DNA of 64,000 bases from an uncultured bacterium. Its GTDB lineage: Bacteria > Patescibacteriota > Patescibacteriia > Magasanikbacterales > GWA2-37-8. Shown one piece after another: positions 7,801-22,964 of the stretch. Every line of letters begins with the position of its first letter. Position 1 is the stretch's first letter. The DNA is taken from NCBI GenBank assembly GCA_937903605.1, contig CALCZC010000025.1, forward strand, positions 3,275 through 67,274, read 5' to 3'. Both the position numbers and the translations under genes were made by a program. The notes under the pieces are model-generated. The model saw only the letters and a program-made list of their open reading frames with translations, had not been told where the DNA came from and ran no database searches.

Positions 7801-10009
7801 ATATTGGTCCGGAGATGGTTCTTCAACTTTGAATATAGAAATTTCCAGTGAATACGATCAGATAGAAAAAGTAAGACAATTGATTTACAAAGATTATGGT
7901 TTTGATCCAGTGGAAGCATTGAGCCAAAATGTAGATATTAATGAACTCGGAATAAATGATTTTATTCAACTCGGTAAAGATTTGCAAGAATTAAGAGAAA
8001 CAGGAGTTTCGGTGGAAGCCATCAGAGCGATAATGGCTGATGGTATTCAAGAGGGTGAATTAGAAAATTTATTTCAACTAGCAGATGCGTTTAAGGAAAA
8101 TCCGGACATGCTGGCACAGTTTAATCATCACCTTGAAGGTGGAGGAGAAATGGGTGAATTTTGGGATAACATGTTAGTCAAAAAAGGCGATGGTATTACG
8201 CAAATAATTGCTAGGCAGATTAAAGCCGATCCGAGCTCTTTTGGAATTGATGCCCAAACTCAAGCTAATCCAGACTTACTTGATAAAGCAGCTGCTATGA
8301 TCGCCACCAAAATCGCCAAAACACAAGGTGCAATAGATTTGCCTTGGGGAGAAAAAACTGTAATAAATGAATATGGGGAAACTAGATTATTGATGCCCAA
8401 AAACGGTGAAACCGGTTTGGTATTTTACAATAGAAATACAGGTAAAATAGAAATATTTAATACTCAGACTTATGAAGAGATGAAAGGTGCCGGAGTTGAA
8501 GTTGAAGTAAAAGGAGACACAACAACGACTTTTGATGAAGCAGAGAGACAAAATGCAGAAACTCTACAAATCTTAAATGCGGAAGAAAGAATAAACGTAG
8601 ACGCACAGTATCTCAGAGCGGTTAATAGAATTAAAGCGGACTTTGGAGCCGAAGAAGCACAAAGGTTGATCAATAAAATGAACGGAGTTTATGAAAAATT
8701 GAAAGAAATGGAGGGTGTAGTTGATAAAAATCCTGTAGCTGGTGCGGACAATATGGCTGGTAGATTACACGATCTAAAAGAGACTTTTTTGAAAATTCAG
8801 ACAGATGTGGTTCCTTCTAACTATGGAAATTCTTTGAGAATGTTGGATGATATAGAAAATGCCGTAAAGAGTGATATATCTATAATAGATAGACAAACAA
8901 CCGGCGGAATATCATCAAAATTTTTGGAAGCAAATGCTGGAGTAATAGAAAGTGTCAAAGAGGATAAAAACTTTTTACAGGGTTTAATAGATCGTGATGA
9001 AAAAATATTAGACGAAGGAAACCTACCAAAAGGAGAAAGAATTGCCATAGAAGACCGTCTACTACAGTCTCGTCAAAATATGGCACAAATAGACCAAAGA
9101 CTGGAAGAAGAATTTGGTATTAGACCAGAATCTGCTCCAGTTAAAACCACAGCTGGTTTCAAAGGGGCGGAGCAGGCATTGAATGAAAATACGGAAATGT
9201 TGAATAAGGAAGCGCAGATGGTTGGTGCTGAACAAAAAATCAGCACAGAGACACCCGATGCCTCCAAAGAGACAACTGAAAGTCCAGAGAAATTTTTTGC
9301 TCATCGAGAAAAAACCATCAGAGCTTTGGAAGAAAGTGGTGGTATTGGGCAAAAAAATGTTGAAACAAATGTGCCTGTAGAAAAAACAACCAGTGCGACA
9401 GAAGACATAGAAAAAATCCAACAAGATTTAGCGGCCAAAGATTTGTTAGAAGTTGAAAATAGGGGTAATGGTGTGATTGCAGAAATTAATAGAAATATGA
9501 ACTCGGTGAGATATAGATTTGGCGGGCAGGACTTCACAGATAAATTTAACGAAGCGCGTGTTGCTTATGAAAGTGCTTTACTAAAAGGAGATAGTGTATT
9601 GGCTACAAATAAAATTGGTGAACTGGAAAATTTAAGAAATTTTCAAGAAATGATAAATAGTAAAAATACGGTGGATACGGTTGTGTTACATAATAGAAAT
9701 ATGGCAATACTAGAAGATTTGAGAGAAAAATATCCAACAGGCAGGTTTGCAGATCTTTATAAAGAAGGTGAAAAACTAGGGCTTGGCTATGGAAAACAAA
9801 CTGATATGTTTAAGACAGGTGATGTAAAAGAAATAATTTCTGACATGGCAAAGCTTAACCAGAAGATCAATGAAAATCTTACTAATTACGAACTACCTCC
9901 AAATGCACAGGGTTTTCTTGATAAAGTTCAAGAGGCTTCCAAAGAGATGTTAGCTGGTCAAATTTCAAAACAAGAAATAAATATGATCTTGAGCAGTGTA
10001 AAAAAATAA
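4841..10009 (+). CDS. giant K/E-rich hypothetical protein (1722 aa) with internal Gly-rich amphipathic/TM-like segments
   Basis: A single uninterrupted 5.2-kb ORF. It has N-terminal coiled-coil and low-complexity regions (PESKSESKPEPKPTSQP) and three or four Gly/Ala-rich hydrophobic segments (LNGALGIGKMAPNMVYKVVGTVLGFKAGTDLAMYAAG; ANFALACTPLTMLRIGTIAGGFAA; VGVFSKAAGQAFVGAGLVGLAI). No enzymatic motif was recognised. Confidence 0.7.
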   Translation: MAKKPDQNSQFGDSYPELKGIEKSLSDIEKNKAEGNKEKIKQEIENITQACLDIQGKAIVLWEKAKGQKEKNKATALIDSIVDLKKTADMFKNTDEVNTEEIKKKLIKIQEKTRNVGNLNSNNKKVEIGNKNKVKVAEVIPEASAEDMARYGGKGEQKPPEKQEEVQVDNNIDSNKEENEKKEKEALIAAAKNKEDLFAALDKIGEVKGSSRTYSTEEIKDAIEALFAGVVIAGKGVTRELGIRDKAEELLKKEKTPKNKKDIIEKAENRKTINKEEFKKIIDEIKTAQGLIDFLNSAPGWIDAGDGLFNFADDKSVENNVKKVKEGFLVGFGKEYKAGYLPEILKNKIEEIRNSKKTRSKKPNTETVKSDNDPATESKPESVPTSQPESKSESKPEPKPTSQPDLVPKEKIGARQKIKIEKININKPSEGKEGIRIIEETTVEKPKADEVQKPTEKKKPFDRAAAFTSIIDFMDEREFKKQKKEVRGEIDAIRMMLEANNIDLLKKYFKNGNLEEDTENIFRADARFKWVFELMGETEEKKVEDKGVLTGEKGGIEKIGPAKAEIVQKAENESKKAQEYAAEIKKVQSEESDESKLKWLLNGALGIGKMAPNMVYKVVGTVLGFKAGTDLAMYAAGEALGKVTGKEHVWGDYAEHKKGEREIPEEQKRLYKLFDEYVASFRQAKLDKMEGKSDKEVTQNLKKSIAELYKFIDNNRYIDPKEKNLFKDRLNAIANDFNQENQEITEQQQEEVKKLAEAFLANKISKVQITRDWANFALACTPLTMLRIGTIAGGFAAERFRKGALEYNKKSKTEIEVKQESKFAHRLKFMTIDAAADWGAAIAGGHTRSTQKLENRRHGGEYDYDKQVDTLNEVKKELKNKTYEDYVEECKDKGIKALMEEKQFDDWKKTSLQKLTKKLSGTSMARVGVFSKAAGQAFVGAGLVGLAINADSLANVEWHDAATNFSNNVDKGLDALQLKPLRDLADRYWSGDGSSTLNIEISSEYDQIEKVRQLIYKDYGFDPVEALSQNVDINELGINDFIQLGKDLQELRETGVSVEAIRAIMADGIQEGELENLFQLADAFKENPDMLAQFNHHLEGGGEMGEFWDNMLVKKGDGITQIIARQIKADPSSFGIDAQTQANPDLLDKAAAMIATKIAKTQGAIDLPWGEKTVINEYGETRLLMPKNGETGLVFYNRNTGKIEIFNTQTYEEMKGAGVEVEVKGDTTTTFDEAERQNAETLQILNAEERINVDAQYLRAVNRIKADFGAEEAQRLINKMNGVYEKLKEMEGVVDKNPVAGADNMAGRLHDLKETFLKIQTDVVPSNYGNSLRMLDDIENAVKSDISIIDRQTTGGISSKFLEANAGVIESVKEDKNFLQGLIDRDEKILDEGNLPKGERIAIEDRLLQSRQNMAQIDQRLEEEFGIRPESAPVKTTAGFKGAEQALNENTEMLNKEAQMVGAEQKISTETPDASKETTESPEKFFAHREKTIRALEESGGIGQKNVETNVPVEKTTSATEDIEKIQQDLAAKDLLEVENRGNGVIAEINRNMNSVRYRFGGQDFTDKFNEARVAYESALLKGDSVLATNKIGELENLRNFQEMINSKNTVDTVVLHNRNMAILEDLREKYPTGRFADLYKEGEKLGLGYGKQTDMFKTGDVKEIISDMAKLNQKINENLTNYELPPNAQGFLDKVQEASKEMLAGQISKQEINMILSSVKK

Positions 10010-10185: not shown

Positions 10186-11718
10186 ATGAACACGTTTATC
10201 GCTCAGCAATCGTTGATCTGGATCCTCCTTTGTCTTTGCCTGATTCTTTTGGCGCTTCATTTCAAAAATGCGATCAAAAAGAAGAAAGAAAAACAAAGAC
10301 AGGATTTGGCTTTGGCAGAAGCCAAGAAAGAAGAAAAGCGTATGCTGGATTTACGAGAAGTATTACCCAAGCTTTTTACCGGCGCGCAACTAGATCATTT
10401 ACGGGCTAGACATTTCATTTTCAATGTCATGACGGCCGAAGAAAGAGACACAATGGCGCAGTGGTTTGAAACTCATGTGGAAATTTTCGGAAAATTTGAT
10501 TTTGAAACAGTCATTTCTGAGGAAAAAAGACCGCTGTTGAGCTTCGATGAATTTCAAGCTCTTTTTATGGTCGTTTTTAACGAAGGTTATTTTGATGCGA
10601 ACAAATTGCCTTTTGGTGGACAGTTGGAAATGTCTCAGAAGCTCAAATGGGCACAAATCCGTTTACGCTCTTCCATGCCGTCCAAAGAAGCAGAGGATGA
10701 AATGGACCGCTTAACCAAACAGGTGCGGTTTAGCCTGGAAGATCTCAACAGAGTGCGTAAATTGGCGGTCGCTGAGTTTGAAGCTCTGCAAAAAAAATCT
10801 CTGGAATTTGACCAGGTATTGGATAGATCGGAAAAAGCGGAAAAAGAGCGCTGGGAACTGTTTGTAGATACCAGGGAATTTTTGAAAGATTGGCCGGAAA
10901 TGAAAAAGGCCCTTTCCTTAGCTCGGTCTGAATACGAAGAACATCTCAAGGAATTGCTTGGTATCAAGAAAATGGGGATAGTTCAGATTCTCAAGGATAT
11001 TGCCGGTCACACCGAGGATCTGAACAAAATCAAAAAAGCCCTCGTTGACATGGAGAAGTGGCGTAAAGATAAGGAGAGTCTTCTGGAAAATAACCTGAGC
11101 AACCATCTGAACAAGATGTTTGAGCAGGCCAAAGACGATGCTGCTTTGCAACGTAAGCAGGCTCTGGATGAAATATCCAAAGTTGTGCATCAAGAGCTTG
11201 ATAAAATGGGTGAAGAAATTGCAGAACTACGTCAGAAGTTTGAAATGGTCCCTTCCGTGGTTGAAAAAAAGAAGGAAGAAGGACAATTCAACTGGTCTGC
11301 GACTATCTATGCTTTTTTTTCCATTTGCCTCATTGTTTTCATCTGGAGAGATCTTTCCAGAGAGAATGACCAATCGATGGTGGTTTTGGATAAGATCGCT
11401 CCGGTGGTGCAAGAAAATAATCTACTTTCCGATTCTGATCCGGAGGAATTTATTACAGTAGAGGAAAACGAGATACCGCCTTTTTATTCCGTTAACGAAG
11501 AAGAAGAAACTTCTTATGTTGAAGAAAAAGAATATTTGGAAAAAGAAACTAATTTTAATGAAGAGCCGAAATTGGTTCCAGTGCCGTTGATAGAAAAAAA
11601 GATAGCAAAAAAAGTTTTGGCTTTATGTCAGGACAAGAAATGCTGTCTTGATAGGTTCGGCAAGGACACTAAGACTTGGCCGCAGGCCATAGAGTGTATG
11701 CGATCAGTAAAAAAGTGA
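10186..11718 (+). CDS. hypothetical bitopic membrane protein with coiled-coil and Cys-rich C-terminus (510 aa)
   Basis: An N-terminal TM (LIWILLCLCLILLALHF), a long coiled-coil/charged region, a second TM (WSATIYAFFSICLIVFIW) and a C-terminal CQDKKCCLDRFG…ECM. GC content is intermediate (~42%). Confidence 0.55.
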   Translation: MNTFIAQQSLIWILLCLCLILLALHFKNAIKKKKEKQRQDLALAEAKKEEKRMLDLREVLPKLFTGAQLDHLRARHFIFNVMTAEERDTMAQWFETHVEIFGKFDFETVISEEKRPLLSFDEFQALFMVVFNEGYFDANKLPFGGQLEMSQKLKWAQIRLRSSMPSKEAEDEMDRLTKQVRFSLEDLNRVRKLAVAEFEALQKKSLEFDQVLDRSEKAEKERWELFVDTREFLKDWPEMKKALSLARSEYEEHLKELLGIKKMGIVQILKDIAGHTEDLNKIKKALVDMEKWRKDKESLLENNLSNHLNKMFEQAKDDAALQRKQALDEISKVVHQELDKMGEEIAELRQKFEMVPSVVEKKKEEGQFNWSATIYAFFSICLIVFIWRDLSRENDQSMVVLDKIAPVVQENNLLSDSDPEEFITVEENEIPPFYSVNEEEETSYVEEKEYLEKETNFNEEPKLVPVPLIEKKIAKKVLALCQDKKCCLDRFGKDTKTWPQAIECMRSVKK

Positions 11719-11734
11719 CTATATAAATTTTACA

Positions 11735-11765
11735 AGGTCGGCCCATAAAGCCGACCTTTTTTATT
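11735..11765 (+). terminator. Rho-independent terminator
   Basis: aaggtcggc-ccataaa-gccgacc followed by ttttttat. Confidence 0.65.
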
Positions 11766-11880
11766 TGAGTAACATTTGGATGATAAAAAGTATTATATAT
11801 GTATAATTTAAAAATATAGGATTAAATACTCAATATTTAACTAAATTTAGCCTTAAATTAGCCAAAAAGAGTAGGGGGTA

Positions 11881-11909
11881 TTGACAAAATTGTCTATTTG
11901 TGCTATAAT
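11881..11909 (+). promoter_or_regulatory. sigma70 promoter TTGACA-17-TGTGCTATAAT, with a ~235-nt leader
   Basis: Consensus -35 at 11881-11886 and extended -10 at 11901-11909. It is nearly identical over ~50 nt to the promoter at 19967-20016. A long untranslated leader runs to the ATG at 12146 and contains inverted repeats (tttgatcc…ggtgatcaaa). Confidence 0.6.
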
Positions 11910-12145
11910 ATGTCGTTACAATCAAAAAGGATTTTGATCCACTGTGGAAGAGGGTGATCAAAAGAACTATGAAAATAACTCCTTCCCGGGAGCGTTTTTT
12001 GTTCTTAAAATAAATTTTCTTTTTAACTGCACGGTTTAAAACATAAACCTTGTTAATAAGGAGAAAATTGTTCATTAAAATTAAAGATTTCGTTTATATA
12101 GGAAGTCCAGGATATTAACAACAGGAAAACACCAGGAGGTGTACG

Positions 12146-13129
12146 ATGAAGAAGATGATGCTTTTTGTCGCGATAGTTTTCGCGATGGTTACCGTGACTG
12201 CGCAGCAGAGCGTGTATCCCCTTAATCCCAGTTCCACAATCACGGTGCAGGAATGCATCGATCTGATGAACGCTGCCAAAACCGCCCAGACCAAAACCAC
12301 CGAAATGAAAAAGAAAGTGGAAGGGGTGGTCGCTGCTGTCAAAAAGGGTAACAAGACTCCGGAAGATGGGTCCAAAGAGATCTCCAAAGAGATCAAGGAG
12401 AACCCCGAAGTTCCTCTGGAAAGCAGAAAGGCGGCTAACGAAGTTGCCAGGAAAGTCCTTTATAAAAAGGATCTGACCGAAGCAATGGAAGCTTTCGAGA
12501 CCACTTTCAAGGCGGACCTCGCCAGATTGGAGGAGAAAATCTCCGGTCTTGAGGAAAGGATGGCAAAGCTTGAAGAAAGCGATGCTAAACAGAATGAACG
12601 CCTTGGCAATGTCGAGGAGGTGGTCGCAGATCATGAAAACCGGCTGGATAACCTGGAAGAGGGAATATTCTCCGGTTACTTCGGTGCAAAGTTTCTCACT
12701 TCTTCGGTGTTCGATACTGCCGGTGGTGGCGAACTGGGTATGACCGTGAAAATCGGCAAGCTCAATGGCCCGTTCAAAGCCGACTTCGGCGCAACCCTGT
12801 ATGGTTCGGAGATCAAAAATCTCATAGGAATCGAAGGCAGGGGCATAATCACCTGGATGAGCGACGATTTCAAATTCGTCAAGCTCGGCCTTGGTGGTAT
12901 GGGCGGTGGCATGTTTGATGTCAATAACGCCGGAAGAGTTTCCACTTCCTACGGCGGTGGGCAGTTCGAGATTTCGGCCGTTTACAAACGGTACGAGCTC
13001 TATGCCGATGTCAACCTCGGCGCAAGGGACATGCGCAAGATAAGCGGCCAGCACGAAACCAGTTTCTACTGGGGAGTGATAACTGGCGTCCGCATAAACT
13101 TCGGCGGTCCGTTCGAGACCGTCAAGTAA
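12146..13129 (+). CDS. secreted protein: signal peptide, coiled-coil stalk, C-terminal beta-rich (barrel-like) domain
   Basis: Signal peptide MKKMMLFVAIVFAMVTVTA-QQ. A heptad-like region (LARLEEKISGLEERMAKLEESDAKQNERLGNVEEVVADHENRLDNLEE) is followed by ~170 aa of alternating hydrophobic/Gly-rich strands (GMTVKIGKLNG…YELYADVNLGA…FYWGVITGVRINFGG). GC ~50%; RBS aggagg. Confidence 0.65.
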   Translation: MKKMMLFVAIVFAMVTVTAQQSVYPLNPSSTITVQECIDLMNAAKTAQTKTTEMKKKVEGVVAAVKKGNKTPEDGSKEISKEIKENPEVPLESRKAANEVARKVLYKKDLTEAMEAFETTFKADLARLEEKISGLEERMAKLEESDAKQNERLGNVEEVVADHENRLDNLEEGIFSGYFGAKFLTSSVFDTAGGGELGMTVKIGKLNGPFKADFGATLYGSEIKNLIGIEGRGIITWMSDDFKFVKLGLGGMGGGMFDVNNAGRVSTSYGGGQFEISAVYKRYELYADVNLGARDMRKISGQHETSFYWGVITGVRINFGGPFETVK

Positions 13130-13147
13130 AACGAATATCTTTAAAAC

Positions 13148-13171
13148 GGGAGGGTGAGTTCTTCACCCTCC
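13148..13171 (+). terminator. GC-rich hairpin (possible terminator; no T-run)
   Basis: gggagggtga-gttct-tcaccctcc: a 9-bp stem immediately after the stop at 13129, with no U-tract. Confidence 0.35.
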
Positions 13172-13322
13172 TATCCCAATCCTTGTCAATAACTTGTTTG
13201 TTGACAGAGTAATGGGAAACCATTAACTGCTCTTTGAAAATTTGCTGTAGAAAAAACCCTTTGAGAGGGTTTATATATAGAGGTTACAGGTAGTTTCATA
13301 ACAAACATCTTTGGAGGATGCC

Positions 13323-14174
13323 ATGAAGAACGTACTTTTTTTCTTTGCCGTCGTGTGTGCGATGGTTTTCACCGTTTCCTGCGCCAACTGCACTTACAAT
13401 GAGAAGCTCGGCGCGTGTATCGAAGACATGCCCGAAGAGACCGATGACGCCAAGACCGACATCGACGACGCCAAGACCGACGACGAAAAGTCGGACACCG
13501 ACACTGTCGAAGGTCCCAAACAGGGTGAAGAAGGCGGAAAATGCTTCGCCAACAAGTCCTGTATGGAAGGGCTGGAATGCATTAAGCTCAATGAAGACTA
13601 TATCTGCATCGTAGCAGAAGAAGTCGATGACGACCTCGCAAGCGACGACGAAGAGACCGACGACGAAACCAGCGATGATGACGCAGTCGATCCCGACCTT
13701 GGAAAAGAAGGTCATGGCTGTCTTCCGAACGGAACCTGCAACGAAGGTCTCGTATGTGACCAGGCTTCCGAGAACGAAACCGATGTCTGCGTAAAAGCGG
13801 TCGGCGTAGTCGGAGATAAGGACGGCTCGTGTAAGCCCGATCGGACTTGTAACACAACCTCACTGGTTTGTTACCGTGAAGACTTCGTCTGTCATAATAT
13901 GCCGACCGTCGGCACACGCACCGTTTGCTGGTCGCGTGAACTCAATACCTCACCGGTGCAGGATTCCTGCTCGAAAGAAGGGGGCATCGCTCCCGCGGTA
14001 TTTGAGTATGTCAGCGGGACAAAAACCCCGAACTGCGAAGGACTCGTGAATGTGGACCCGGAGTTCGAATGCGTGCGTATCAACGCAACGGTCGAAACCT
14101 TCCGTAATTCCACACCGGCCGAGCGAGATGACCTCGCCCTCACTTCGTCGTTCTACCTTCCGCCCATAAATTAA
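13323..14174 (+). CDS. acidic Cys-knot secreted lipoprotein, family member 1
   Basis: MKNVLFFFAVVCAMVFTVSC-ANCTYNEKLGACIEDMPEE: a signal peptide ending in Cys, then D/E/T-rich linkers and repeated knots G.C.PN.TC.EGL.C (KCFANKSCMEGLECI; GCLPNGTCNEGLVCD; SCKPDRTCNTTSLVCY). An RBS (ggagga) lies 5 nt before the ATG at 13323. Confidence 0.65.
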   Translation: MKNVLFFFAVVCAMVFTVSCANCTYNEKLGACIEDMPEETDDAKTDIDDAKTDDEKSDTDTVEGPKQGEEGGKCFANKSCMEGLECIKLNEDYICIVAEEVDDDLASDDEETDDETSDDDAVDPDLGKEGHGCLPNGTCNEGLVCDQASENETDVCVKAVGVVGDKDGSCKPDRTCNTTSLVCYREDFVCHNMPTVGTRTVCWSRELNTSPVQDSCSKEGGIAPAVFEYVSGTKTPNCEGLVNVDPEFECVRINATVETFRNSTPAERDDLALTSSFYLPPIN

Positions 14175-14181
14175 CGGCGGA

Positions 14182-14250
14182 CCCCAAGTGCTTTTGGGGT
14201 GACTACAGCAACTTTTACTTGACAGCCGATGCACCGGCTGTCTTTTTTTT
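14182..14250 (+). terminator. tandem hairpins with a strong Rho-independent terminator
   Basis: ccccaa-gtgctt-ttgggg (14182-14199), then gacagccg-atgcac-cggctgtc followed by tttttttt (14221-14250). Confidence 0.7.
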
Positions 14251-14331
14251 ATCAATTTTCCCCTCCTTTTGATAAGAGGAGGCCTGCCTGCCGGTAGGCA
14301 GGACTAGGGTGGAGTCAAGTGGAAAAAATAG

Positions 14332-14360
14332 TTGACAAATTATAAATTTTATGCTACATT
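14332..14360 (+). promoter_or_regulatory. candidate promoter TTGACA-17-TGCTACATT
   Basis: -35 ttgaca at 14332-14337 and a TG-extended -10-like tacatt at 14355-14360, upstream of the EF-hand repeat gene. The -10 is weaker than consensus. Confidence 0.4.
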
Positions 14361-14525
14361 TAGCTGTTAAAAGATTTTCCTTTTTCGGCGCTTTTAATGG
14401 GTTTTTTGTATTTATTTTGAAAGTGCAAAAAAGAGGGAAAGCTCTTTGAAAAATTAGCAACTTTAGATAGGGAGAACAGAATGAAAAACGGTTTTAACAA
14501 CAGCAACTGCACGGAGGTGCACGCA

Positions 14526-17500
14526 ATGAAGAACTACTTCGTTTTTTTCATCGCCGTAGCGATGATGCTCATGCTTGCTTGTGAAAGCAGCAAAGACGGT
14601 CGTGATGGTCGTGATGGTCGCGATGGTATCGCGGGCCAGGACGGCCAGGATGGTCAGGACGGGGAAGATGCTCCGGTTTCGCTTTCGCGCTCCGAAAAAG
14701 CGAGTGAAGAAGAAGCGCGTGAGAACTGTGGCGAGGACATCGTCAACGCCAATTGGATCTGTACCGGCGTGGACGAAAATGAAAATGGCTATCTCGACGA
14801 TTATGAATTCGCCGAATGCCATATTGAATGCGCGGGTGCGCCCGGTCACAGTGCATTGGTTGCAAAAACCGATACCACACAAACCGAGTGTCCCAACGGC
14901 GGATTTCATTTTCTTTCCGGTATTGACACCAACGACAATGGCGAGCTTGATGCCGAAGAAGTTTTGGTTGATGAGCTCGTTTGTAACGGCGTTGATGGTC
15001 AGGATGGTATCGGTGATGTAGTTCGTACCAGTACGGAACCCGCCGGCACCAACTGCCAAAACGGTGGTCAGAAAATCGAGCGTGGTCGCGATCTCAACCG
15101 CAACGGTCAGCTGGATGTGTCCGAGATTACCAGTACAAATTATGTATGCAATGGTATTGACGGTACGAACGGGCATGATGCGAGGACTCGCACCAGTATT
15201 ACCAATGATCCGACATTGTGTGCCAGCGGTTCCGGAGTTATTTTTGAATCCGGTACTGACAACAATGACAACGGAGTGCTCGATGATCCGGAGGTTTCCA
15301 CTACGGATGTTATCTGTGATGGTGCCAACGGTAAGACCACACGCATGATCGTGGCCACAGAACCCGCAGGAACAAACTGCGCAGTCGGCGGTTTTTCCGT
15401 CGTTTATGGCGTAGATGAAAATGACAATGGACTTCTCGATACTACCGAGCAGTCGCCCGCACAGTACATCTGTCATGGACAAGACGGTTACAGTGTCGTG
15501 ATGAGAGTCACGGCTGATATTGCTGTTTGTTCATGGAACGGATACAGGTTGCAGTTCGGTCAGGATCTTGATCGTAATGGTATCTTGGATACCGGCGAGG
15601 AAACATCCGACTTTTATATCTGCAACGGATCCGATGGTCTCATTTCCCGCATCAATATTTCCGACGAGCCCAATGGTGAAAACTGTGCGGCCAGCGGAAA
15701 AAGAATAGATACGGGGATGGACATCAATCGCAACGGCCTGCTTGACAGCACCGAGATTACCACGACCAACTATGTCTGCAACGGTGTGCAGGGTCCGCAG
15801 GGAGTTCGGGGATACAATTCGCTTTCGCGGATAACTCCGGATCTTGGCGGAACAGTCTGCACCTGGGGTGGATATTATTTGGAAGTCGGCACAGACATCA
15901 ATGAAGACTGGATCTTGGATCTGGATGAAGTTGGTCACAGTGCTTATGTCTGCAACGGTATAGATGGTAAGACCTGCAGTTCCATACTCAACGATGAACC
16001 CATCGGTACGAACTGTGCTTACGGCGGAAAAATCGTGTATTCCGGTTGTGACGATGATTACAACGGTGTGCTGGACCTCTACGAGGTCGTTCATACCGAC
16101 TACATCTGTAACGGCGCCACCGGTGCGATAGGTCCTGCCGGGTACAATGCCCTGACCAATATGCAAATAGCGGTCAGCGGTTGTCCCAATGGCGGATATG
16201 TTTTCACTGCCGGCACAGACGCCAATGATGATCAGATCCTTGATCTCACGGAAGTGACGGTCACGAATCTTATCTGTCATGGTGTCAATGGCCAGGATGG
16301 TTATACCTATCGTGTGCAGATGGTTGATGAACCCGTGAGTACAAATTGTGTTCAAGGTGGCAAGGCTATCAGTGGAGGTATAGACAGCAACCGTAATGGT
16401 GTGCTCGATCCTTCCGAAGCCGATGATCCGGTTTACATCTGTCATGGTGCAAACGGACTGCCCGGCGCCAATGGTCAAAACGGTCTAAGTATGGCTTTTG
16501 TCATCAGCGTGGCGAGCATTTCCGAATGCCCGGCCGGTGGTGAGAAGCTGGAGCTTGGATTGGATATTGATGCCAGTGGCGTGCTTGAGCTCGTTGAAGT
16601 TACTAGCACGGTTCTCATCTGCAATGGTCAGAACGGTCAGAACGGTAAAAATTCTTTGACCACTATGACCGTGGAGCCCATAGGTACAAACTGCGCCAAA
16701 GGCGGCCATCTCTTGTTGGTCGGTATTGACGACAATGAAAACGGTATTTTGGATTCCAGTGAAGCCGGGGTTCCGCAGTATGTCTGCCATGGTTTGGATG
16801 GCATCAATGGTGCCAACGGGACCAACGGCCACAATGCTTTGGCGATGGTTACCACATCCACTTTGGGATTCTGTCCCAATGGCGGATCCGAACTGCGGAC
16901 CGGAACTGATCTCAATGATGATGGGGTTTTGAATGCGGGCGAAGTTTCTTCGTTTGCGCTTATCTGTAACGGCCAGAACGGCGCCAATGGTGCCGACGGT
17001 TACAGCTCCAGAACTACGATGATCAGTGAGCCCGCAGGTGCCAATTGCCAGGCCGGAGGATTTTTTATTATCTCCGGTACTGATACCAACAACAACGGCG
17101 CGTTGGATGTTACGGAAATTGAATATTCCGGATACATCTGCAACGGCATAAATGGGAATCCCGGCAGTAATGCCGTAACCCGTGGCCGTCTCGCGCTCGT
17201 TTCTGAATGTCTTAATGGCGGAAGCATCGTGGAAACCGGTACGGATAGTAACAACAATGCTGTACTGGACGATGTGGAAGTCATGACGATAAGTTATCTC
17301 TGCAACGGTGATCCGGGAACAAATGGCCAGGATGGCATTTCCTATCGTGTTATCATCACCAATGAATCCGCTGGAATTAATTGTCAGGCCGGTGGAAAAA
17401 AATTGGAAGGTGGTTACGATACTAACAGGAATAATATCCTGGATCCAGGCGAAATCGTAATGACCGAGTATGTCTGCAACGGCATGGACGGTCAGGATGG

Positions 17501-18296
17501 TCAGGATGGTGTGAACGCACTGCTGCGTATGGAAGATGAACCCGCAGGGGTAAATTGCGAACGCGGTGGCAAAGCAATCCTTTCCGGTTACGATCTGGAT
17601 AGTGATAATTACCTGGATGACACCGAAGTGCTTGCACAGAGTTATCTCTGCAACGCCAAGATCGTTTACTCGGTTGGCGCAGAAAGCACCTATGGTACAT
17701 TCACGGCCTATACAGCCAGCACGGTTTCGTATTGCAAAATATATGGTACGACTCTTGAAGCCGTTGCTTACATTAGCGATGTGGGTAATGCGGCGGTAGT
17801 GGCTACGGATTGGGAAGCGGTGGAGTGTTTCAACACTTCCCATGTCCGGGTGAACATCATTTCTTGTTCCGGTAGCGGTTTTGCGCAGAGCAATGTCGGT
17901 GTGTGCACTTATGACGGATCCGTGTATGCGCGTGGCGGTTTGGGGCAGACTTGTAAGCCCAATCGTGCGTGTGATAGCGGTGTCTGCCGACTTCTGGACA
18001 CGACCTGCATTACCAAACCCTCTCCGGGAGCGGGCGAATACGCTTTTTATTGGGACGGCACTATGAACTCCGGCGGAACCACTTGCGAAAGCTATGGTGG
18101 TAACTACTACTCACCGGTGGTGGGTCAGTGGGATATTTCCGGAGTGCCCAACTGTAATGCCGATCTCGGTGATCCGGTTAGGGGACTCAAGTTCTACACC
18201 GGGTGCATCACGGATCAGAGTGATTTTGATACTCTTGATCCTGCCACTCGTCATTGCACCGGTCCGGCTTATGCCACGGTGCTGGCGCCCTGGTAA
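14526..18296 (+). CDS. giant secreted lipoprotein with ~18 tandem EF-hand-loop repeats and collagen-like GXY runs (about 1257 aa from the preferred start)
   Basis: The preferred start is the MKNYFVFFIAVAMMLMLAC Met at 14526 (RBS ggaggtg); the ORF-track start is 14481. After the Cys come 8 GXY triplets (GRDGRDGRDGIAGQDGQDGQDGED). Then come ~60-aa repeats, each with a canonical 12-residue EF-hand loop D-x-[DN]-x-[DN]-G-x-[LI]-D-x-x-E, for example DTNDNGELDAEE, DLNRNGQLDVSE, DNNDNGVLDDPE, DENDNGLLDTTE and DINRNGLLDSTE. Each repeat is flanked by Y[VI]C[NH]G and EP.GTNC Cys motifs and short GXY runs (CNGVQGPQGVRG, CHGANGLPGANGQNG). The C-terminal ~215 aa is Cys-rich and has a YWD…GGTTCES module. 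Confidence 0.75.
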   Translation: MKNYFVFFIAVAMMLMLACESSKDGRDGRDGRDGIAGQDGQDGQDGEDAPVSLSRSEKASEEEARENCGEDIVNANWICTGVDENENGYLDDYEFAECHIECAGAPGHSALVAKTDTTQTECPNGGFHFLSGIDTNDNGELDAEEVLVDELVCNGVDGQDGIGDVVRTSTEPAGTNCQNGGQKIERGRDLNRNGQLDVSEITSTNYVCNGIDGTNGHDARTRTSITNDPTLCASGSGVIFESGTDNNDNGVLDDPEVSTTDVICDGANGKTTRMIVATEPAGTNCAVGGFSVVYGVDENDNGLLDTTEQSPAQYICHGQDGYSVVMRVTADIAVCSWNGYRLQFGQDLDRNGILDTGEETSDFYICNGSDGLISRINISDEPNGENCAASGKRIDTGMDINRNGLLDSTEITTTNYVCNGVQGPQGVRGYNSLSRITPDLGGTVCTWGGYYLEVGTDINEDWILDLDEVGHSAYVCNGIDGKTCSSILNDEPIGTNCAYGGKIVYSGCDDDYNGVLDLYEVVHTDYICNGATGAIGPAGYNALTNMQIAVSGCPNGGYVFTAGTDANDDQILDLTEVTVTNLICHGVNGQDGYTYRVQMVDEPVSTNCVQGGKAISGGIDSNRNGVLDPSEADDPVYICHGANGLPGANGQNGLSMAFVISVASISECPAGGEKLELGLDIDASGVLELVEVTSTVLICNGQNGQNGKNSLTTMTVEPIGTNCAKGGHLLLVGIDDNENGILDSSEAGVPQYVCHGLDGINGANGTNGHNALAMVTTSTLGFCPNGGSELRTGTDLNDDGVLNAGEVSSFALICNGQNGANGADGYSSRTTMISEPAGANCQAGGFFIISGTDTNNNGALDVTEIEYSGYICNGINGNPGSNAVTRGRLALVSECLNGGSIVETGTDSNNNAVLDDVEVMTISYLCNGDPGTNGQDGISYRVIITNESAGINCQAGGKKLEGGYDTNRNNILDPGEIVMTEYVCNGMDGQDGQDGVNALLRMEDEPAGVNCERGGKAILSGYDLDSDNYLDDTEVLAQSYLCNAKIVYSVGAESTYGTFTAYTASTVSYCKIYGTTLEAVAYISDVGNAAVVATDWEAVECFNTSHVRVNIISCSGSGFAQSNVGVCTYDGSVYARGGLGQTCKPNRACDSGVCRLLDTTCITKPSPGAGEYAFYWDGTMNSGGTTCESYGGNYYSPVVGQWDISGVPNCNADLGDPVRGLKFYTGCITDQSDFDTLDPATRHCTGPAYATVLAPW
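14760..17650 (+). repeat. tandem ~185-195-bp coding repeats (about 18 copies, diverged) within the EF-hand lipoprotein gene
   Basis: Protein-level periodicity of ~60-65 aa seen directly in the translation. The DNA copies are diverged, so these are old repeats. Confidence 0.7.
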
Positions 18297-18315
18297 GTTG
18301 CTTTAGTTCATTTCA

Positions 18316-18343
18316 GGCGGTCCTTCTAGGACCGCCTTTTTTA
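18316..18343 (+). terminator. Rho-independent terminator
   Basis: ggcggtcc-ttct-aggaccgcc followed by tttttt. It is a structural paralog of the terminator at 19876. Confidence 0.7.
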
Positions 18344-18353
18344 TTATAGGTAT

Positions 18354-18382
18354 TTGACATACATTGATGAGTGATATATAAT
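18354..18382 (+). promoter_or_regulatory. sigma70 promoter TTGACA-17-TATAAT
   Basis: -35 ttgaca at 18354-18359 and tataat at 18377-18382. Confidence 0.55.
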
Positions 18383-18447
18383 GGTTTGTTAAAAGTTCTT
18401 TGATATTTTAGACAGATAATAAACCATAATTCATGATGGAGGTTGTC

Positions 18448-19854
18448 ATGAAAAGTGTAGTTTTGACCGCGGTTGCGATCTTTTTTGTTTCCATGTTTTT
18501 CATTTCCGGATGTGCCAACTGTAATTATTCCGAACAGTTGGGAGCGTGTCTTGAAGAGACACCGGATAATGGTGTTGACAAAGAAAATAATGACAATTTT
18601 GTTTCAGACAAAGAAATGACTGATGAAGAAGCCAACAATTTGCCAAAAATCGGTGAAGAAGGCGGAGGGTGTTATCCAAACGATACTTGTGACTCCGGTT
18701 TGAAGTGTATCAAGATCAATGAGAAGATGATGTGTATCAAATTGTCCGAAGAAAAAGATGCAGAGGTTGAAGTTCAGGATTTTGCTGTTGAAAACGAATT
18801 ACCTGATAATGATACTGCATCAAACACTGAGAATGATTCTTACTATCAAGATGACACTGAATCATCTGATTTTGAAAATGAGATACCGGATGTTGATCAT
18901 GTTATCAAATGTGATAAACCGGTTGTAGCCGTAGCCTTCAAAGGACCGCAAGGTTATTGTGGTGGCCAATTTCCTTTTGGCCGTTGGCATGACAATGCGG
19001 TTGTTAAAACCGGACAAGAAGTGACCATAGTAGTTGCCAACCCGTTGGGGACTATTCCGACAGGATACAATCTTGCCAATGAGCTCAAGATAATGGTAAA
19101 AATTTCCCAAGATACGGATTATCTCAACAGTAACTTATCTAATGGATTTTTTATTGGAAACAACGCGCTGACCATGGGTCTTACACCGGGTGGTGGTAAC
19201 AAAACGGAAATGAAATTGATTTTTGCAAAAAAATCATCTTCCATTATGGAGCCACAGAAAGTGATTGTCTCCATAGTTCAAACCACCGGTTATGACGGAT
19301 ATGTTGCCCTTGAGAAAGATAAGTTCGGCGGAGTCTATTGTAGCCCCCATGGAACCTGTCCCGTTTTTAGCGAAGTGATTTTGTGGGTAGTCGACTCTTC
19401 CGATTCCATTCAATGGGGTGAACTGAATCAGAGATGTTTGCCGGATAAAAGATGCTCGCGAAATTATTCCGACCAGTGTGTATCCGGTGACGATCAAGAA
19501 TACTTTTGTACCCAATATGGAAATACTTGTGTTTCCAAACCAAAATTGGAAGTGGATCAGGAATATCGCTATTGGGATGCTACCATAGATTGGTATACAG
19601 GTTCGAACTCCGTTTATAACGGTAAAACCACCTGTGAAAGCAAAAGTTCGAGCAATCGTTTTTGTTATCCACCCGATCCATGGACTTGGAATAACGATAG
19701 TGTTTTACCTGCCTGCCAATGCAGTGACAACTCCTTGTTTAAGCCGGCTGGTGCAATGGGATGCGTTGTTGATAAAGGAAGTCGGTGGGTAGATTGTAAA
19801 AGCGATATTTTTTGGAAATACAATTTTTACTCACCCTCCTATATCTGTCAGTAG
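18448..19854 (+). CDS. acidic Cys-knot secreted lipoprotein, family member 2
   Basis: Preferred start MKSVVLTAVAIFFVSMFFISGC-ANCNYSEQLGACLEETPD (RBS ggaggt). The N-terminal module is near-identical to the 13323 protein. It has the GGGCYPNDTCDSGLKCIKI knot and a C-terminal YRYWDATIDWYTGSNSVYNGKTTCESK module. Confidence 0.7.
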   Translation: MKSVVLTAVAIFFVSMFFISGCANCNYSEQLGACLEETPDNGVDKENNDNFVSDKEMTDEEANNLPKIGEEGGGCYPNDTCDSGLKCIKINEKMMCIKLSEEKDAEVEVQDFAVENELPDNDTASNTENDSYYQDDTESSDFENEIPDVDHVIKCDKPVVAVAFKGPQGYCGGQFPFGRWHDNAVVKTGQEVTIVVANPLGTIPTGYNLANELKIMVKISQDTDYLNSNLSNGFFIGNNALTMGLTPGGGNKTEMKLIFAKKSSSIMEPQKVIVSIVQTTGYDGYVALEKDKFGGVYCSPHGTCPVFSEVILWVVDSSDSIQWGELNQRCLPDKRCSRNYSDQCVSGDDQEYFCTQYGNTCVSKPKLEVDQEYRYWDATIDWYTGSNSVYNGKTTCESKSSSNRFCYPPDPWTWNNDSVLPACQCSDNSLFKPAGAMGCVVDKGSRWVDCKSDIFWKYNFYSPSYICQ

Positions 19855-19875
19855 TTGATAATATAGTTCTTTTTA

Positions 19876-19903
19876 GGTGGCTCTTCTAGAGCCACCTTTT
19901 TTA
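19876..19903 (+). terminator. Rho-independent terminator
   Basis: ggtggctc-ttct-agagccacc followed by tttttt. Confidence 0.7.
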
Positions 19904-19966
19904 TTTAGTAAAAAATGGCTTAAATAAGCAAAATTTATTTTGGCTAAGATTAGCTAAGTTTACCCC

Positions 19967-19995
19967 TTGACAAAATCGTCAAAATGTGCTATAAT
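19967..19995 (+). promoter_or_regulatory. sigma70 promoter TTGACA-17-TGTGCTATAAT, with a ~205-nt leader
   Basis: -35 at 19967-19972 and extended -10 at 19985-19995. The promoter and leader start (…tataatatcacgttacaatcaaaaag) are paralogous to 11881-11930. The leader contains gagagag/ctctctc inverted repeats. Confidence 0.6.
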
Positions 19996-20201
19996 ATCAC
20001 GTTACAATCAAAAAGCGTTGGAGAGAGCGCGGAAGTAATAAAAGGCCAAATTCCGTATCTCTCTTTATCAAAAGAGAGTTTTGTTTTTCTAGCCCATTAT
20101 CCCATCAACTAGATTGATTGGATAAAGGAGAGAAAAAATAAAAATCAGGTTCCTTACAATATAGAGTTAGAGTCCAAAAAACCAATAAGTGGAGGAAAAC
20201 C

Positions 20202-21362
20202 ATGAAAAAGCTCATCACCACGGTTGTGGTCGCCTTCTTTTTCGTCGCCTGTGGCGGCAGCAATGTCAACAATGTCAATGACGAATTCGTCGGCAACGAC
20301 GAAAGCATCAATGATGAAATCACCGACAACGAGACTCCCGATGAGATCGTCAGCGATGACGAGATTAACTGGGATGAAGTCGGCCATGAAGGGGAGCCAT
20401 GCTTCCCGAACAATACTTGTCACGAAGGGCTTAAATGCCGTGACGGCAAGTGTGTGGACGACGGTGGCATGTCCGATACCGGTAAACTCAATCATGAGTG
20501 TTACCCGGACGGTTCATGCAGATCAGACGACATGATCTGTGAGGAAGGAATTTGCGTCGAGCGTAAAGCCGATGCGGATGAAACTCTCACGGATAATGAA
20601 GTCGCGGATGATGTTGTGACTGATGACGAAACTTCGGATGAAATCATTTCCGATGAGGAAGTGGTGGATGAAGAAGTGATGACTGACAACGACATCGTTG
20701 ACAATCCCGTGGTCGACAATGACACGGCCGAAGATCCTCTGACCGGGATTGAAGCGGGACATCCCTGCTACCCCAACAACACCTGCGATAGTATCAAAGG
20801 TCTTGTATGTCAGAACGGTCTCTGTCAGTATCCTGGCACCACGCCGGATGTTGATACTGCGACTCCGGACGAGGACGAAGTCCTTGTCGATGATGAGACA
20901 GTCACTGATTCCGACGTTGCTTCTGATGAAGAAGTGACAGACGATGATGTGCTTCTCACAGAAGAAGAACCGGTGGTTGATAATGATACCACTGAAGTTC
21001 CGGATCAGGACAATCTGCCGTCCGACATCGGAAACAAGGGGCAGAGTTGTTACCCCAACCACACCTGTAATGGTGTGCTGGTCTGTATCGTTGGCACTGA
21101 AATATGTGCTGATGAACCGATTGCTGTCCTCGGACAGTATGAGGGCAGATGTTGGGACTACAAGGATCCTCTTACAGGAAAAACCACCTGTGAAAAAGAG
21201 GGCTGGTACTGGTCTCCTGCTATCTGGGCCGAGACTTCGGACCAATTCCCGCTTTGTATCGGTAGCAGCACCAGACGTCCGTATCTTGCGGAATGTCAGT
21301 TGCAAACCAACAGCGGAGAGCCTCGTAGTTCGGTGTGGTATAAATATCCGACCACGCCGTAA
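20202..21362 (+). CDS. acidic Cys-knot secreted lipoprotein, family member 3
   Basis: MKKLITTVVVAFFFVAC-GGS lipoprotein-like signal. Four knots (EPCFPNNTCHEGLKCRDGKCV; HECYPDGSCRSDDMICEEGICV; HPCYPNNTCDSIKGLVCQNGLCQ; QSCYPNHTCNGVLVCIVGTEICA) are separated by long D/E/T/V-rich linkers. C-terminal module CWDYKDPLTGKTTCEKEGWYW. Confidence 0.7.
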   Translation: MKKLITTVVVAFFFVACGGSNVNNVNDEFVGNDESINDEITDNETPDEIVSDDEINWDEVGHEGEPCFPNNTCHEGLKCRDGKCVDDGGMSDTGKLNHECYPDGSCRSDDMICEEGICVERKADADETLTDNEVADDVVTDDETSDEIISDEEVVDEEVMTDNDIVDNPVVDNDTAEDPLTGIEAGHPCYPNNTCDSIKGLVCQNGLCQYPGTTPDVDTATPDEDEVLVDDETVTDSDVASDEEVTDDDVLLTEEEPVVDNDTTEVPDQDNLPSDIGNKGQSCYPNHTCNGVLVCIVGTEICADEPIAVLGQYEGRCWDYKDPLTGKTTCEKEGWYWSPAIWAETSDQFPLCIGSSTRRPYLAECQLQTNSGEPRSSVWYKYPTTP

Positions 21363-21641: not shown

Positions 21642-22964
21642 ATGTTTATTCGAAAAATTGTTTTTTTAACGGCAGTGTTTTTATTTATGCCGTTGGTTGT
21701 TTCTGCTGAAACAACTTCTACCACGTCAACGGTAGAAACTATTGTGTTCAAGGTTTTTAACGCTGATTGTGAAAATATCTCCGAAGGCCTTTTGGCCAAT
21801 AGTTGTTATGTCAAAAAAGCCGCTGATAATCTGGATTGTTCGTATTGTGAAAAAATAAATTGGTTTGGCGGGCGTGTTTCTTGCTGTGTCGGTGTGATAA
21901 ACAGTTTCACTCGAGAGGGATTGTGTGACAATTTGACCGAAACAAAATTGAAAGAAAAATGTTTATTACATTTGGCAGTCAAAACCAAAAACGGAGCTTT
22001 GTGTAAACAAATAAAAGATAAAAATGAAAATTTTGCTTGTCGAGCTGAGATAGCCAAGCAAGCTACTGATTTGAAGCAGTGCGATAAAATGAATAAAATA
22101 GAAAAAGATTATTGCCTTTTGAAATTTGCAGAAACGCAAAAGAATGAAAAAATTTGCGCCAAAATAGGTGAACGCGGAGTTAAAAGATTTTGTTACAATA
22201 AATTGGCGGTGTTAAAAAACAATGAAAAGCTTTGTCCTTTAACTGCTAATGCGGATAAATGTTATTTGGCAGTAGCGGAAAGTAAAAAAGATGGAGCGCT
22301 TTGCGCTAAAATCAAAGACGGGTCTTTGGTTGGGTATTGTTTGGACAGAGTGGCAATAGTTAAAAAAGATTATAATGCTTGCAATTTGATAAAAGGAAAT
22401 TATAAATTTGATTGTATTTTTGATGTTGGTAAAGCAAAAGGTAGCGCCATGTCTTGTGAAAAAATAACGGATAAAGAAAAAAATTATACATGTGTTACGC
22501 ATTTTGCGACAGAACGTGAAGATTTGAGTTATTGTAATTATCTGAAAGATAAAACTAAACTTACTGCATGTACCGACGAAGTAGCAAAAACCATAAATGC
22601 CAGAGTTCAAGACGCTCAACGGATATCCGATTTAAAATCTATGCAAACGGCTTTGGAACTTTATTTTATGGATAATAATGAATATCCAGAAGGAAAAGAT
22701 ATTGTTCTTGGTGGTTCAAATGGAGTTTGTTTGATAAATACCGGAATTGAAGGAGAAAATTGGACCTGTCCGGAAAATCCGACAGTTGTTTATTTTAATA
22801 GTATTCCCGCAGACCCTATTAACACTGGTATTTATACTTATACCTATACCAAAACCTCTGGAGTCTCACCTTGTTATCATATTATTGCCAGATTTGAAAC
22901 AAATTATGGCGAATATAAGGCCGGGCCGTTTTATGTAAGTTGTGAAGGTGGAATTTTTCAGTAA
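21642..22964 (+). CDS. secreted Cys-repeat protein with a C-terminal type IV pilin / T2SS pseudopilin-like domain
   Basis: Signal peptide MFIRKIVFLTAVFLFMPLVVSA. About 7 tandem ~35-aa repeats carry spaced Cys (…K.GALC.KIKD….C….A). The C-terminus (ARVQDAQRISDLKSMQTALELYFMDNNEYPEG……CPENP) resembles the pilin-like globular domain (RDA.R..DL……LE.Y..DNG.YP). Confidence 0.6.
   Translation: MFIRKIVFLTAVFLFMPLVVSAETTSTTSTVETIVFKVFNADCENISEGLLANSCYVKKAADNLDCSYCEKINWFGGRVSCCVGVINSFTREGLCDNLTETKLKEKCLLHLAVKTKNGALCKQIKDKNENFACRAEIAKQATDLKQCDKMNKIEKDYCLLKFAETQKNEKICAKIGERGVKRFCYNKLAVLKNNEKLCPLTANADKCYLAVAESKKDGALCAKIKDGSLVGYCLDRVAIVKKDYNACNLIKGNYKFDCIFDVGKAKGSAMSCEKITDKEKNYTCVTHFATEREDLSYCNYLKDKTKLTACTDEVAKTINARVQDAQRISDLKSMQTALELYFMDNNEYPEGKDIVLGGSNGVCLINTGIEGENWTCPENPTVVYFNSIPADPINTGIYTYTYTKTSGVSPCYHIIARFETNYGEYKAGPFYVSCEGGIFQ

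Follow-up and report, generated by a model that had tools for sequence, protein, structure and literature searches.

What kind of molecule is a secreted protein of 1,256 amino acids (aa) in which a lipoprotein-like start is followed by a short collagen-like stretch, by eighteen repeats that each carry a loop resembling that of the calcium-binding EF-hands, and by a cysteine-rich end? The question is raised by positions 14526-18296 of a 64,000-nucleotide stretch of contig CALCZC010000025.1, assembled from an uncultured bacterium of the Magasanikbacterales; the whole stretch is called the window here and positions are counted from its first letter. Judged by its sequence, the product of 14526-18296 is a previously unseen member of a catalogued, uncharacterised protein family, DUF7151. 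We are somewhat inclined to the view that it would present an orphan head on a lipid-anchored stalk stiffened by calcium; the island that encodes it was probably acquired from a high-GC bacterium. Unusual in this protein are its unit count, which is the highest listed, the orphan head that it has in common with neighboring genes, and its host, a member of the Patescibacteria in which the locus bears signs of gene transfer.

The family assignment comes from the Pfam model PF23657 (DUF7151), which matches 18 stretches of the protein with 679.1 bits (E = 8.4e-210) and passes the gathering threshold of 27.2 bits; single units score 40-68 bits against the same model. A preliminary description of this DNA, made from its letters, had outlined a lipobox, G-X-Y (GXY) triplets, 18 Cys-bracketed repeats with EF-hand-type loops and a Cys-rich head common to the neighboring genes, and this anatomy was borne out. 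It is made up of the following parts:

14526..14582, forward strand: signal peptide and lipobox (MKNYFVFFIAVAMMLMLAC), read directly with a PS51257-type rule
14598..14669, forward strand: eight uninterrupted G-X-Y triplets, aa 25-48 (GRDGRDGRDGIAGQDGQDGQDGED)
14676..14855, forward strand: conserved N-terminal segment with the degenerate repeat 1, four Cys and the loop DENENGYLDDYE
14859..17660, forward strand: 17 further DUF7151 units, aa 112-1045, from PF23657 and the unit alignments
17661..17915, forward strand: head part a, aa 1046-1130, predicted to be beta-rich, with four Cys
17916..18293, forward strand: head part b, aa 1131-1256, with the module C-x5-C-x4-C-x6-C ... W ... TTCE ... C ... 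C

Each unit of the array consists of a cysteine pair (Cys9...Cys40), a 12-residue loop of the Dx[DN]x[DN]G type and a CNGxxGxxG linker, and the 18 loops are spaced 50-60 aa apart. The loops had been described as perfect in each repeat. All 18 do retain the core positions 1, 3, 5, 8 and 12 of the EF-hand-type pattern, namely D1, [DN]3, [DNS]5, L8 and E12 (the looser motif D-x-[DN]-x-[DNS]-x-x-L-x-x-x-E), but the strict motif D-x-[DN]-x-[DN]-G-x-[LI]-D-x-x-E is present in only 11; five loops are without Gly6, and two have E or N at position 9. When the protein was shuffled 2,000 times, the strict motif never arose (11 observed), and the loose one arose 0.0045 times on average. Units 2-18 have two Cys apiece at a distance of about 31 residues, which an inserted residue raises to 32 in unit 4; the degenerate unit 1 has four, arranged differently. 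The Cys pair, G19, D21 and E32 are found in 18/18 units and GG (12-13) in nearly all of them, with family frequencies of 96-100%. Two types of unit, 'EPAGxNC' and non-EPAG, alternate along the array, and a unit is 42% identical to the next but one and 34% identical to its immediate neighbor.

Relatives were sought in 5.8 billion proteins, where 284 were found; the family statistics given here use the 120 listed of these 284. Myxococcota, Polyangiaceae, Ekhidna, Alcanivorax, Polaribacter, Pelomonas, Ferrimonas and Nitrospirae are named among the matches listed, and several of the listed relatives already carry the name 'DUF7151 family protein'. The 120 listed relatives show no higher count than these 18 units, the others having 5-17 with a median of 7, and identity to the units of relatives is 30-43%. 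Common to all of this material is a unit of 46 aa with an invariant Cys pair and loop, and the layout around it is also alike: a lipobox-like N-terminus (82 of 121 family members), a GXY run of at least five triplets (98 of 121), an array which begins at most 70 aa from the N-terminus (96 of 118 relatives), GXY runs between units, and at least 150 aa behind the array (102 of 118), which form a C-terminal head. When only relatives with a lipobox-like start are considered, the array begins within the first 70 aa in 77 of 79. The heads vary across the family, the tails behind the array including RCC1, BNR/sortilin, Ig-like and PD40 domains, among others. As the repeat is Pfam DUF7151 and the listed relatives show the same layout, the architecture counts as already catalogued, and the earlier remark that it was not recognised as described no longer applies. 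The protein differs from these relatives in its head, an orphan Cys-rich domain and not RCC1, BNR or Ig; in its host, a low-GC member of the Patescibacteria, of which none is present among the listed relatives with an organism name; and in its position within a compositionally foreign island. No paper was found when the literature was searched for 'DUF7151' and 'PF23657', and the Protein Data Bank (PDB) searched with the whole-protein sequence gave no match at E <= 1.

Conservation of the loop was examined in 943 units of 118 other proteins. D1 is kept in 100% of them, N/D3 in 95%, N/D5 in 92%, G6 in 74%, L8 in 95%, D/E9 in 83% and E12 in 99%, and the bracketing cysteines in 100% (Cys9) and 99% (Cys40). 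When orthologs are compared, the variable positions of the loop differ and the ligand positions are mostly retained. Since the family keeps exactly the ligand positions, these alignments strongly suggest that the loops bind Ca2+. The canonical EF-hand loop reads D-x-[DNS]-x-[DNS]-G-x-[ILV]-[DSTNE]-x-x-E (PMC3123361), and the introduction of the same paper mentions known Ca2+ binding by Dx[DN]xDG loops in strand-loop-strand contexts. A profile of the units of this protein, compared with the PDB, matched solely calcium-binding EF-hand loops and only over the loop; calcium-dependent kinase 3l19 (E = 0.003), the SdrD B repeat 4jdz (E = 0.012) and lanmodulin were among the matches.

The surroundings of the loop are those of a beta-hairpin. 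Four units (aa 169-378) modelled with AlphaFold2 (AF2) from a 31-sequence alignment gave an all-beta structure with a predicted local distance difference test value (pLDDT) of 76 and a predicted template modelling score (pTM) of 0.44, in which each unit runs from strand 13-19 through loop 21-32, the end of which is a one-turn (3-residue) helix, to strand 33-40. An independent analysis of mean-field covariation in a set of 581 distinct units (effective number 442) revealed an antiparallel ladder with the pairs 18-34, 14-38, 14-37, 15-37 and 18-35 (i+j about 52). Positions 3, 4, 6 and 8, which belong to the EPAGxNC segment, are also coupled with 37/38, and this places Cys9 close to Cys40. The predicted structure and the covariation both put the loop at the tip of a beta-hairpin, between its two strands.

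On the reading that we favor, this secreted DUF7151 protein would be held on the outer side of the cell membrane by a lipid on Cys19. The mature protein has 52 Cys, an even number, and a net charge of -121, as would suit an extracellular setting. Each of its 18 units would form a small beta-hairpin in which the invariant Cys9-Cys40 pair clamps the base and the loop at the tip coordinates one Ca2+ with the side chains of positions 1, 3, 5, 9 and 12 and the backbone of position 7. With Ca2+ bound and disulfides formed, the 18 units would become a stiff, strongly acidic rod, for which our guess, made from strands of 7-8 residues, is a few nm per unit and tens of nm overall. The short GXY runs (CNGxxGxxG) would serve as linkers between units and not as collagen, and the rod would hold the lineage-specific Cys-rich head off the cell surface and within reach of a ligand, which a host cell would plausibly carry. 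The gene itself would be one of several independently transcribed lipoprotein cassettes in the island.

The GXY runs could also be interpreted differently, as parts of a homotrimeric collagen-like fibril in which these runs would join three chains in a triple helix made of segments, with the DUF7151 units around it as beads. The collagen-like stretches of the preliminary description do exist: besides the eight N-terminal triplets, 12 of the 18 repeats have 3-5 GXY triplets after the second Cys. The runs of at least five triplets in 98 of 121 family members speak for such a trimer, as do matches of the Pfam Collagen model in many listed relatives and the conservation of the CNGxxG linker, a domain edge at which G42 is kept in 95% and G45 in 99% of the 943 units; in identical chains, moreover, runs of unequal length would stay in register. 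In this protein, however, the Collagen model PF01391 stays below its cut-off of 27.2 bits, with 16.2 bits for the whole protein and 21.9 bits for the N-terminus alone, and the longest run is that of eight triplets, so that membership in the collagen family was rejected. The runs are short (3-5 triplets between units, eight at the N-terminus) and nearly free of proline, and in the AF2 model the linkers are coil of lower confidence (pLDDT 62-64). Stable helices of bacterial collagens such as Scl1/Scl2 have far longer GXY runs together with a trimerisation domain. The likeness to Scl1/Scl2 (PF01391) consists of G-X-Y triplets beside a surface anchor and of weak matches, that is Collagen and, with 18 bits, the SclB model NF038329; the differences are that here only eight triplets are consecutive, that the scores are below the curated cut-offs and that no trimerisation domain was recognised. 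A trimeric fibril is in our opinion unlikely, although it is the alternative that survives best.

Another possibility is that the protein is a calcium reservoir or a component of an envelope matrix, whose 18 acidic loops mainly take up or buffer divalent cations at the surface of the cell, or cross-link surface glycans through calcium. Its composition would suit such a role, for it is highly acidic (D 108 and E 69 vs K 20 and R 36), with the net charge of -121; the genes around it, among them those for Wzz, Wzy_C, glycosyltransferases and MurJ, make up a locus for surface polysaccharide and peptidoglycan. The distribution of conservation does not fit it as well. Compared with a 77%-identical ortholog (P0002), the N-terminal segment at 14676..14855 is 95% identical and thereby the most conserved part of the protein, head part b is 89% identical and the repeats are 75% identical. 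The greater conservation of the N-terminal segment and head part b points to specific interactions at both ends with a scaffold between them, and the coupling of the array to diverse globular heads across the listed family is likewise the pattern of a scaffold. We regard a reservoir as rather improbable.

Repeats of a true helix-loop-helix EF-hand calcium sensor, as the title of the preliminary description implied, are hardly credible. It is true that the consensus of the loops does not differ from that of canonical EF-hands, and that in three relatives (P0003, P0021 and P0011) the models EF-hand_5, _6 and _1 exceed the whole-protein cut-offs, although by summation of matches which cover only the loop. 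The EF-hand identity itself did not stand: the Pfam EF-hand matches extend only over profile positions ~8-23, which is the loop, and for this protein are below cut-off, no EF-hand domain of the PDB aligns past the loop, the protein is predicted to be extracellular and disulfide-rich, and strands 13-19 and 33-40, seen both in the AF2 model and in the covariation, flank the loop where helices would be required. The helix-loop-helix was rejected on these grounds. An assembly artefact or a non-functional repeat expansion has a practically negligible probability and was also rejected, because the gene recurs in several independent assemblies, with an identical 1,271-aa protein (P0123) on five contigs of NCBI/Logan/ENA (the longest of 348 kb), copies 95-97% identical in ENA and JGI assemblies and a 77% identical ortholog with likewise 18 units at the syntenic locus of another sample; the orthologs of 95% and 77% identity both have 18 units and an intact frame, with the ligand residues mostly kept, and the repeats are on average only 46-51% identical at the DNA level, which makes their collapse or expansion during assembly unlikely.

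Several observations weigh against a calcium-stiffened stalk and should be considered together. In the Pfam search with the whole protein no EF-hand family appears at E <= 1, and single units are below the EF-hand cut-offs (EF-hand_5 11.4 bits, cut-off 25.9; EF-hand_6 12.2 bits, cut-off 25). Since five of the 18 loops are without Gly6, some of them may bind weakly. Given its pTM, the AF2 model does not fix the orientation of units relative to each other, nor hence the shape and length of a rod. The literature offers no Ca2+-binding, disulfide or lipidation experiment on any DUF7151 protein, and neither lgt nor lsp is among the annotated genes of the window. A ligand-binding role of the head is conjectural, as the head has no recognisable relatives and its structural model is of very low confidence. 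Finally, the shift in GC content at third codon positions (GC3), on which the proposed acquisition of the island depends, could stem from causes besides gene transfer.

The gene is an open reading frame (ORF) at 14481..18296 on the forward strand, with an in-frame ATG at 14526 that gives the protein of 1,256 aa. Both possible starts are preceded by Shine-Dalgarno-like sequences, GGGAG before ATG 14481 and GGAGG before ATG 14526. The lipobox was assessed directly with a rule of the PROSITE PS51257 type (basic n-region, hydrophobic h-region, [LIVMFWSTAG]2-[LIVMFYSTAGCQ]-[AGS]-C, Cys at 15-35), and the N-terminus, MK...IAVAMM-LM-L-A-C19, conforms to it. Whichever start is used, the hydrophobic segment ends with L-M-L-A-C, which puts the Cys at 19 (ATG 14526) or 34 (ATG 14481). 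The candidate lipidated Cys19, which the preliminary description had called lipobox-like and which fits this rule, is kept in two orthologs (P0001 and P0002), and the extension from the upstream ATG is not kept in P0002. A weak match of the NCBIfam lipoprotein N-terminus model to the protein agrees with the lipobox. The neighborhood of the gene contains the following features:

14332..14360, forward strand: sigma-70-like promoter candidate, TTGACA-17-TACATT with a TG extension, consensus match at 10/12 positions
18315..18347, forward strand: intrinsic-terminator-like hairpin, a 10 bp stem with 7 GC pairs, then a T-run
13311..14174, forward strand: paralogous lipoprotein of 287 aa with the C-terminal Cys module
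18433..19854, forward strand: paralogous lipoprotein of 473 aa with the module
20202..21362, forward strand: paralogous lipoprotein of 386 aa with several 'GxxCxPNxxC..GLxC' mini-modules and the C-terminal module
10186..21362, no strand assigned: GC3-rich island with six genes for secreted proteins or lipoproteins, within a low-GC cell-envelope locus

The promoter candidate at 14332..14360 is no more than a consensus match. Upstream of it, at 14243-14330, GC-rich inverted repeats can be read directly, for example cctccttttgataagaggagg and gcctgcctgccggtaggcaggac, and no Rfam family matches this intergenic sequence.

The head deserves separate attention. As the preliminary description stated, the C-terminal region is Cys-rich (12 Cys in the last ~214 aa) and has a module in common with neighboring genes: a stretch of about 90 aa, in which eight Cys and one Trp are invariant, is also present in the products of 13311-14174, 18433-19854 and 20202-21362 (BLASTP E = 3e-4 to 3e-6). 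No Pfam family was found for the C-terminal 221 aa, nor for these three acidic, Cys-rich paralogs, apart from a weak match of the 386-aa one to the EB module (21 bits, below cut-off). A word-indexed search with the head returned nothing, but it also missed known orthologs. An exhaustive phmmer search with the head in 1.84 billion representatives found only the ortholog, a 200-aa fragment (P0122) that is 34% identical to head part a and has DUF7151 units in front of it, and a spurious low-complexity match (P0121), which was rejected as a relative of the head. The AF2 model of the head, made from a 6-sequence alignment, had a pLDDT of 34 and is unusable. Two JGI metagenome contigs, L047 (Ga0208040_1000752) and L048 (Ga0116172_10001323), stop within the head, at residues 133 and 191 of 221, and these ends may reflect strain variation just downstream.

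That the host is a member of the Patescibacteria, as had been proposed, is borne out by LepA of the window, which is 93% identical to that of metagenome-assembled genomes of Candidatus Magasanikbacteria / Patescibacteria; a search of the literature on Magasanikbacteria found nothing relevant. The window is a cell-envelope region in which Wzz, Wzy_C, glycosyltransferases and MurJ are accompanied by GHL15, a Mur ligase, MurB, MraW and a sugar transferase. Within it the island stands out by its GC3 of 0.39-0.62 (0.52 for the DUF7151 gene) vs 0.24-0.35 in the flanking genes, and codon choice shifts accordingly. At the locus of the ortholog (L001) the contrast is stronger, with 0.47-0.81 in the island vs 0.27-0.42 outside. 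The nearest non-orthologous DUF7151 genes are situated on contigs with 61-65% GC, whose GC3 matches theirs. It is from the GC3 contrast at both loci and from these nearest relatives that a high-GC donor is proposed, and the Magasanikbacteria lineage probably acquired the island from it.

Five terminator-like hairpins bound the genes of the island, and promoter-like sites precede most of them. One cassette, 18345-19909, is complete, with a promoter match of 12/12 at 18354, the gene 18433-19854 and a terminator at 19875. As a strain-variable element, it is absent from three related assemblies (L001, L002 and L048), which have 0.1-0.7 kb of unrelated sequence in its place; in L002, the sole one inspected, the replacement sequence contains no convincing ORF. 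Other genes in and around the island were also noted. Gene 12146-13129, also conserved in L001 and L047, has a GC3 of 0.62; its 327-aa product starts with a signal peptide, has a coiled-coil central region, for which Pfam and NCBIfam gave only weak coiled-coil noise, and ends in a Gly-rich part that may be rich in beta structure. The gene 4841-10009, directly before the island, encodes a protein of 1,722 aa with a host-like GC3 of 0.24 and no Pfam match, to which a 1,425-aa protein corresponds in L001. Beyond the island, 21642-22964 encodes a secreted protein of 440 aa with 28 Cys and no Pfam match; its C-terminal part holds DAQRISDLKSMQTALELYF, which we take to be typical of type IV pilin-like proteins. 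The transfer-messenger RNA gene lies at 473-867 on the reverse strand (Rfam RF00023, 150 bits) and its tag peptide is ANLFSKAKAMFGNTMSFAPAMA.

What these results mean is limited by the fact that the protein is an instance of a catalogued family. DUF7151 is, on the other hand, widespread and uncharacterised, and a testable assignment can be offered for it, namely one calcium per disulfide-clamped hairpin in a module that would function as a stalk; if this is true, the known contexts of Dx[DN]xDG calcium sites increase by one. More tentatively, and with considerable doubt about the proposal as a whole, DUF7151 could be an unrecognised context of the EF-hand-type loop, a free-standing, disulfide-clamped hairpin repeated up to 18 times as a calcium-dependent stalk of surface lipoproteins, which one lineage of Patescibacteria captured through gene transfer and fused, for contact with the host, to an orphan head whose module also occurs in the three neighboring lipoprotein cassettes. 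To our knowledge, little has been established about how ultrasmall Patescibacteria recognise and hold host cells. A surface lipoprotein of this size may reasonably be proposed as an attachment factor. The protein could have a role as an adhesin or in episymbiosis, although the link to attachment is one that we infer. A paper on Saccharibacteria and TLR2 was not used as evidence for lipoproteins in these bacteria, since the lipoproteins described there belong to the Actinomyces host.

Among known systems, thrombospondin type 3 repeats and Excalibur domains are, like DUF7151, Cys-bracketed, Asp/Asn-rich extracellular repeats that bind calcium. DUF7151 differs from them in having regular beta-strands and one EF-type loop per unit. 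The preliminary description had named both as families to be searched; neither these two nor dockerin gave a Pfam match at E <= 1 with the whole protein or at E <= 10 with single units, and membership in the thrombospondin type 3 or Excalibur families was rejected. Dx[DN]xDG loops outside EF-hands, for example in the integrin-like 'calcium blade' (Rigden et al. 2011, PMC3123361), resemble those of DUF7151 in being extracellular, in lying between beta-strands and in the probably structural role of their calcium. DUF7151 is set apart by retention of the full 12-residue pattern, including Glu12 (99%) and Leu8 (95%), and by its unit, which would be a free-standing disulfide-clamped hairpin in tandem and not a blade of a propeller.

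The B repeats (CnaB-type) of the Staphylococcus aureus proteins SdrC/D/E are also tandem, all-beta surface repeats with a consensus EF-hand loop each, and the unit profile of the protein studied here aligns to two SdrD loops (4jdz, E = 0.012). The likeness to the Sdr B repeat and CnaB is confined to the calcium loop and no fold match was found; the Sdr units are longer (110-113 aa) and without a Cys clamp, and the Sdr proteins have the opposite polarity, with a C-terminal LPXTG anchor and an N-terminal binding domain. The EF-hand loops of the SdrD B repeats bind calcium, which compacts the protein, and it has been hypothesised that these domains, as spacers, keep the binding domain at a distance from the cell surface (PMC3775735). 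By analogy, the B-repeat region of the staphylococcal Sdr proteins is probably the closest functional counterpart of the DUF7151 array described here.

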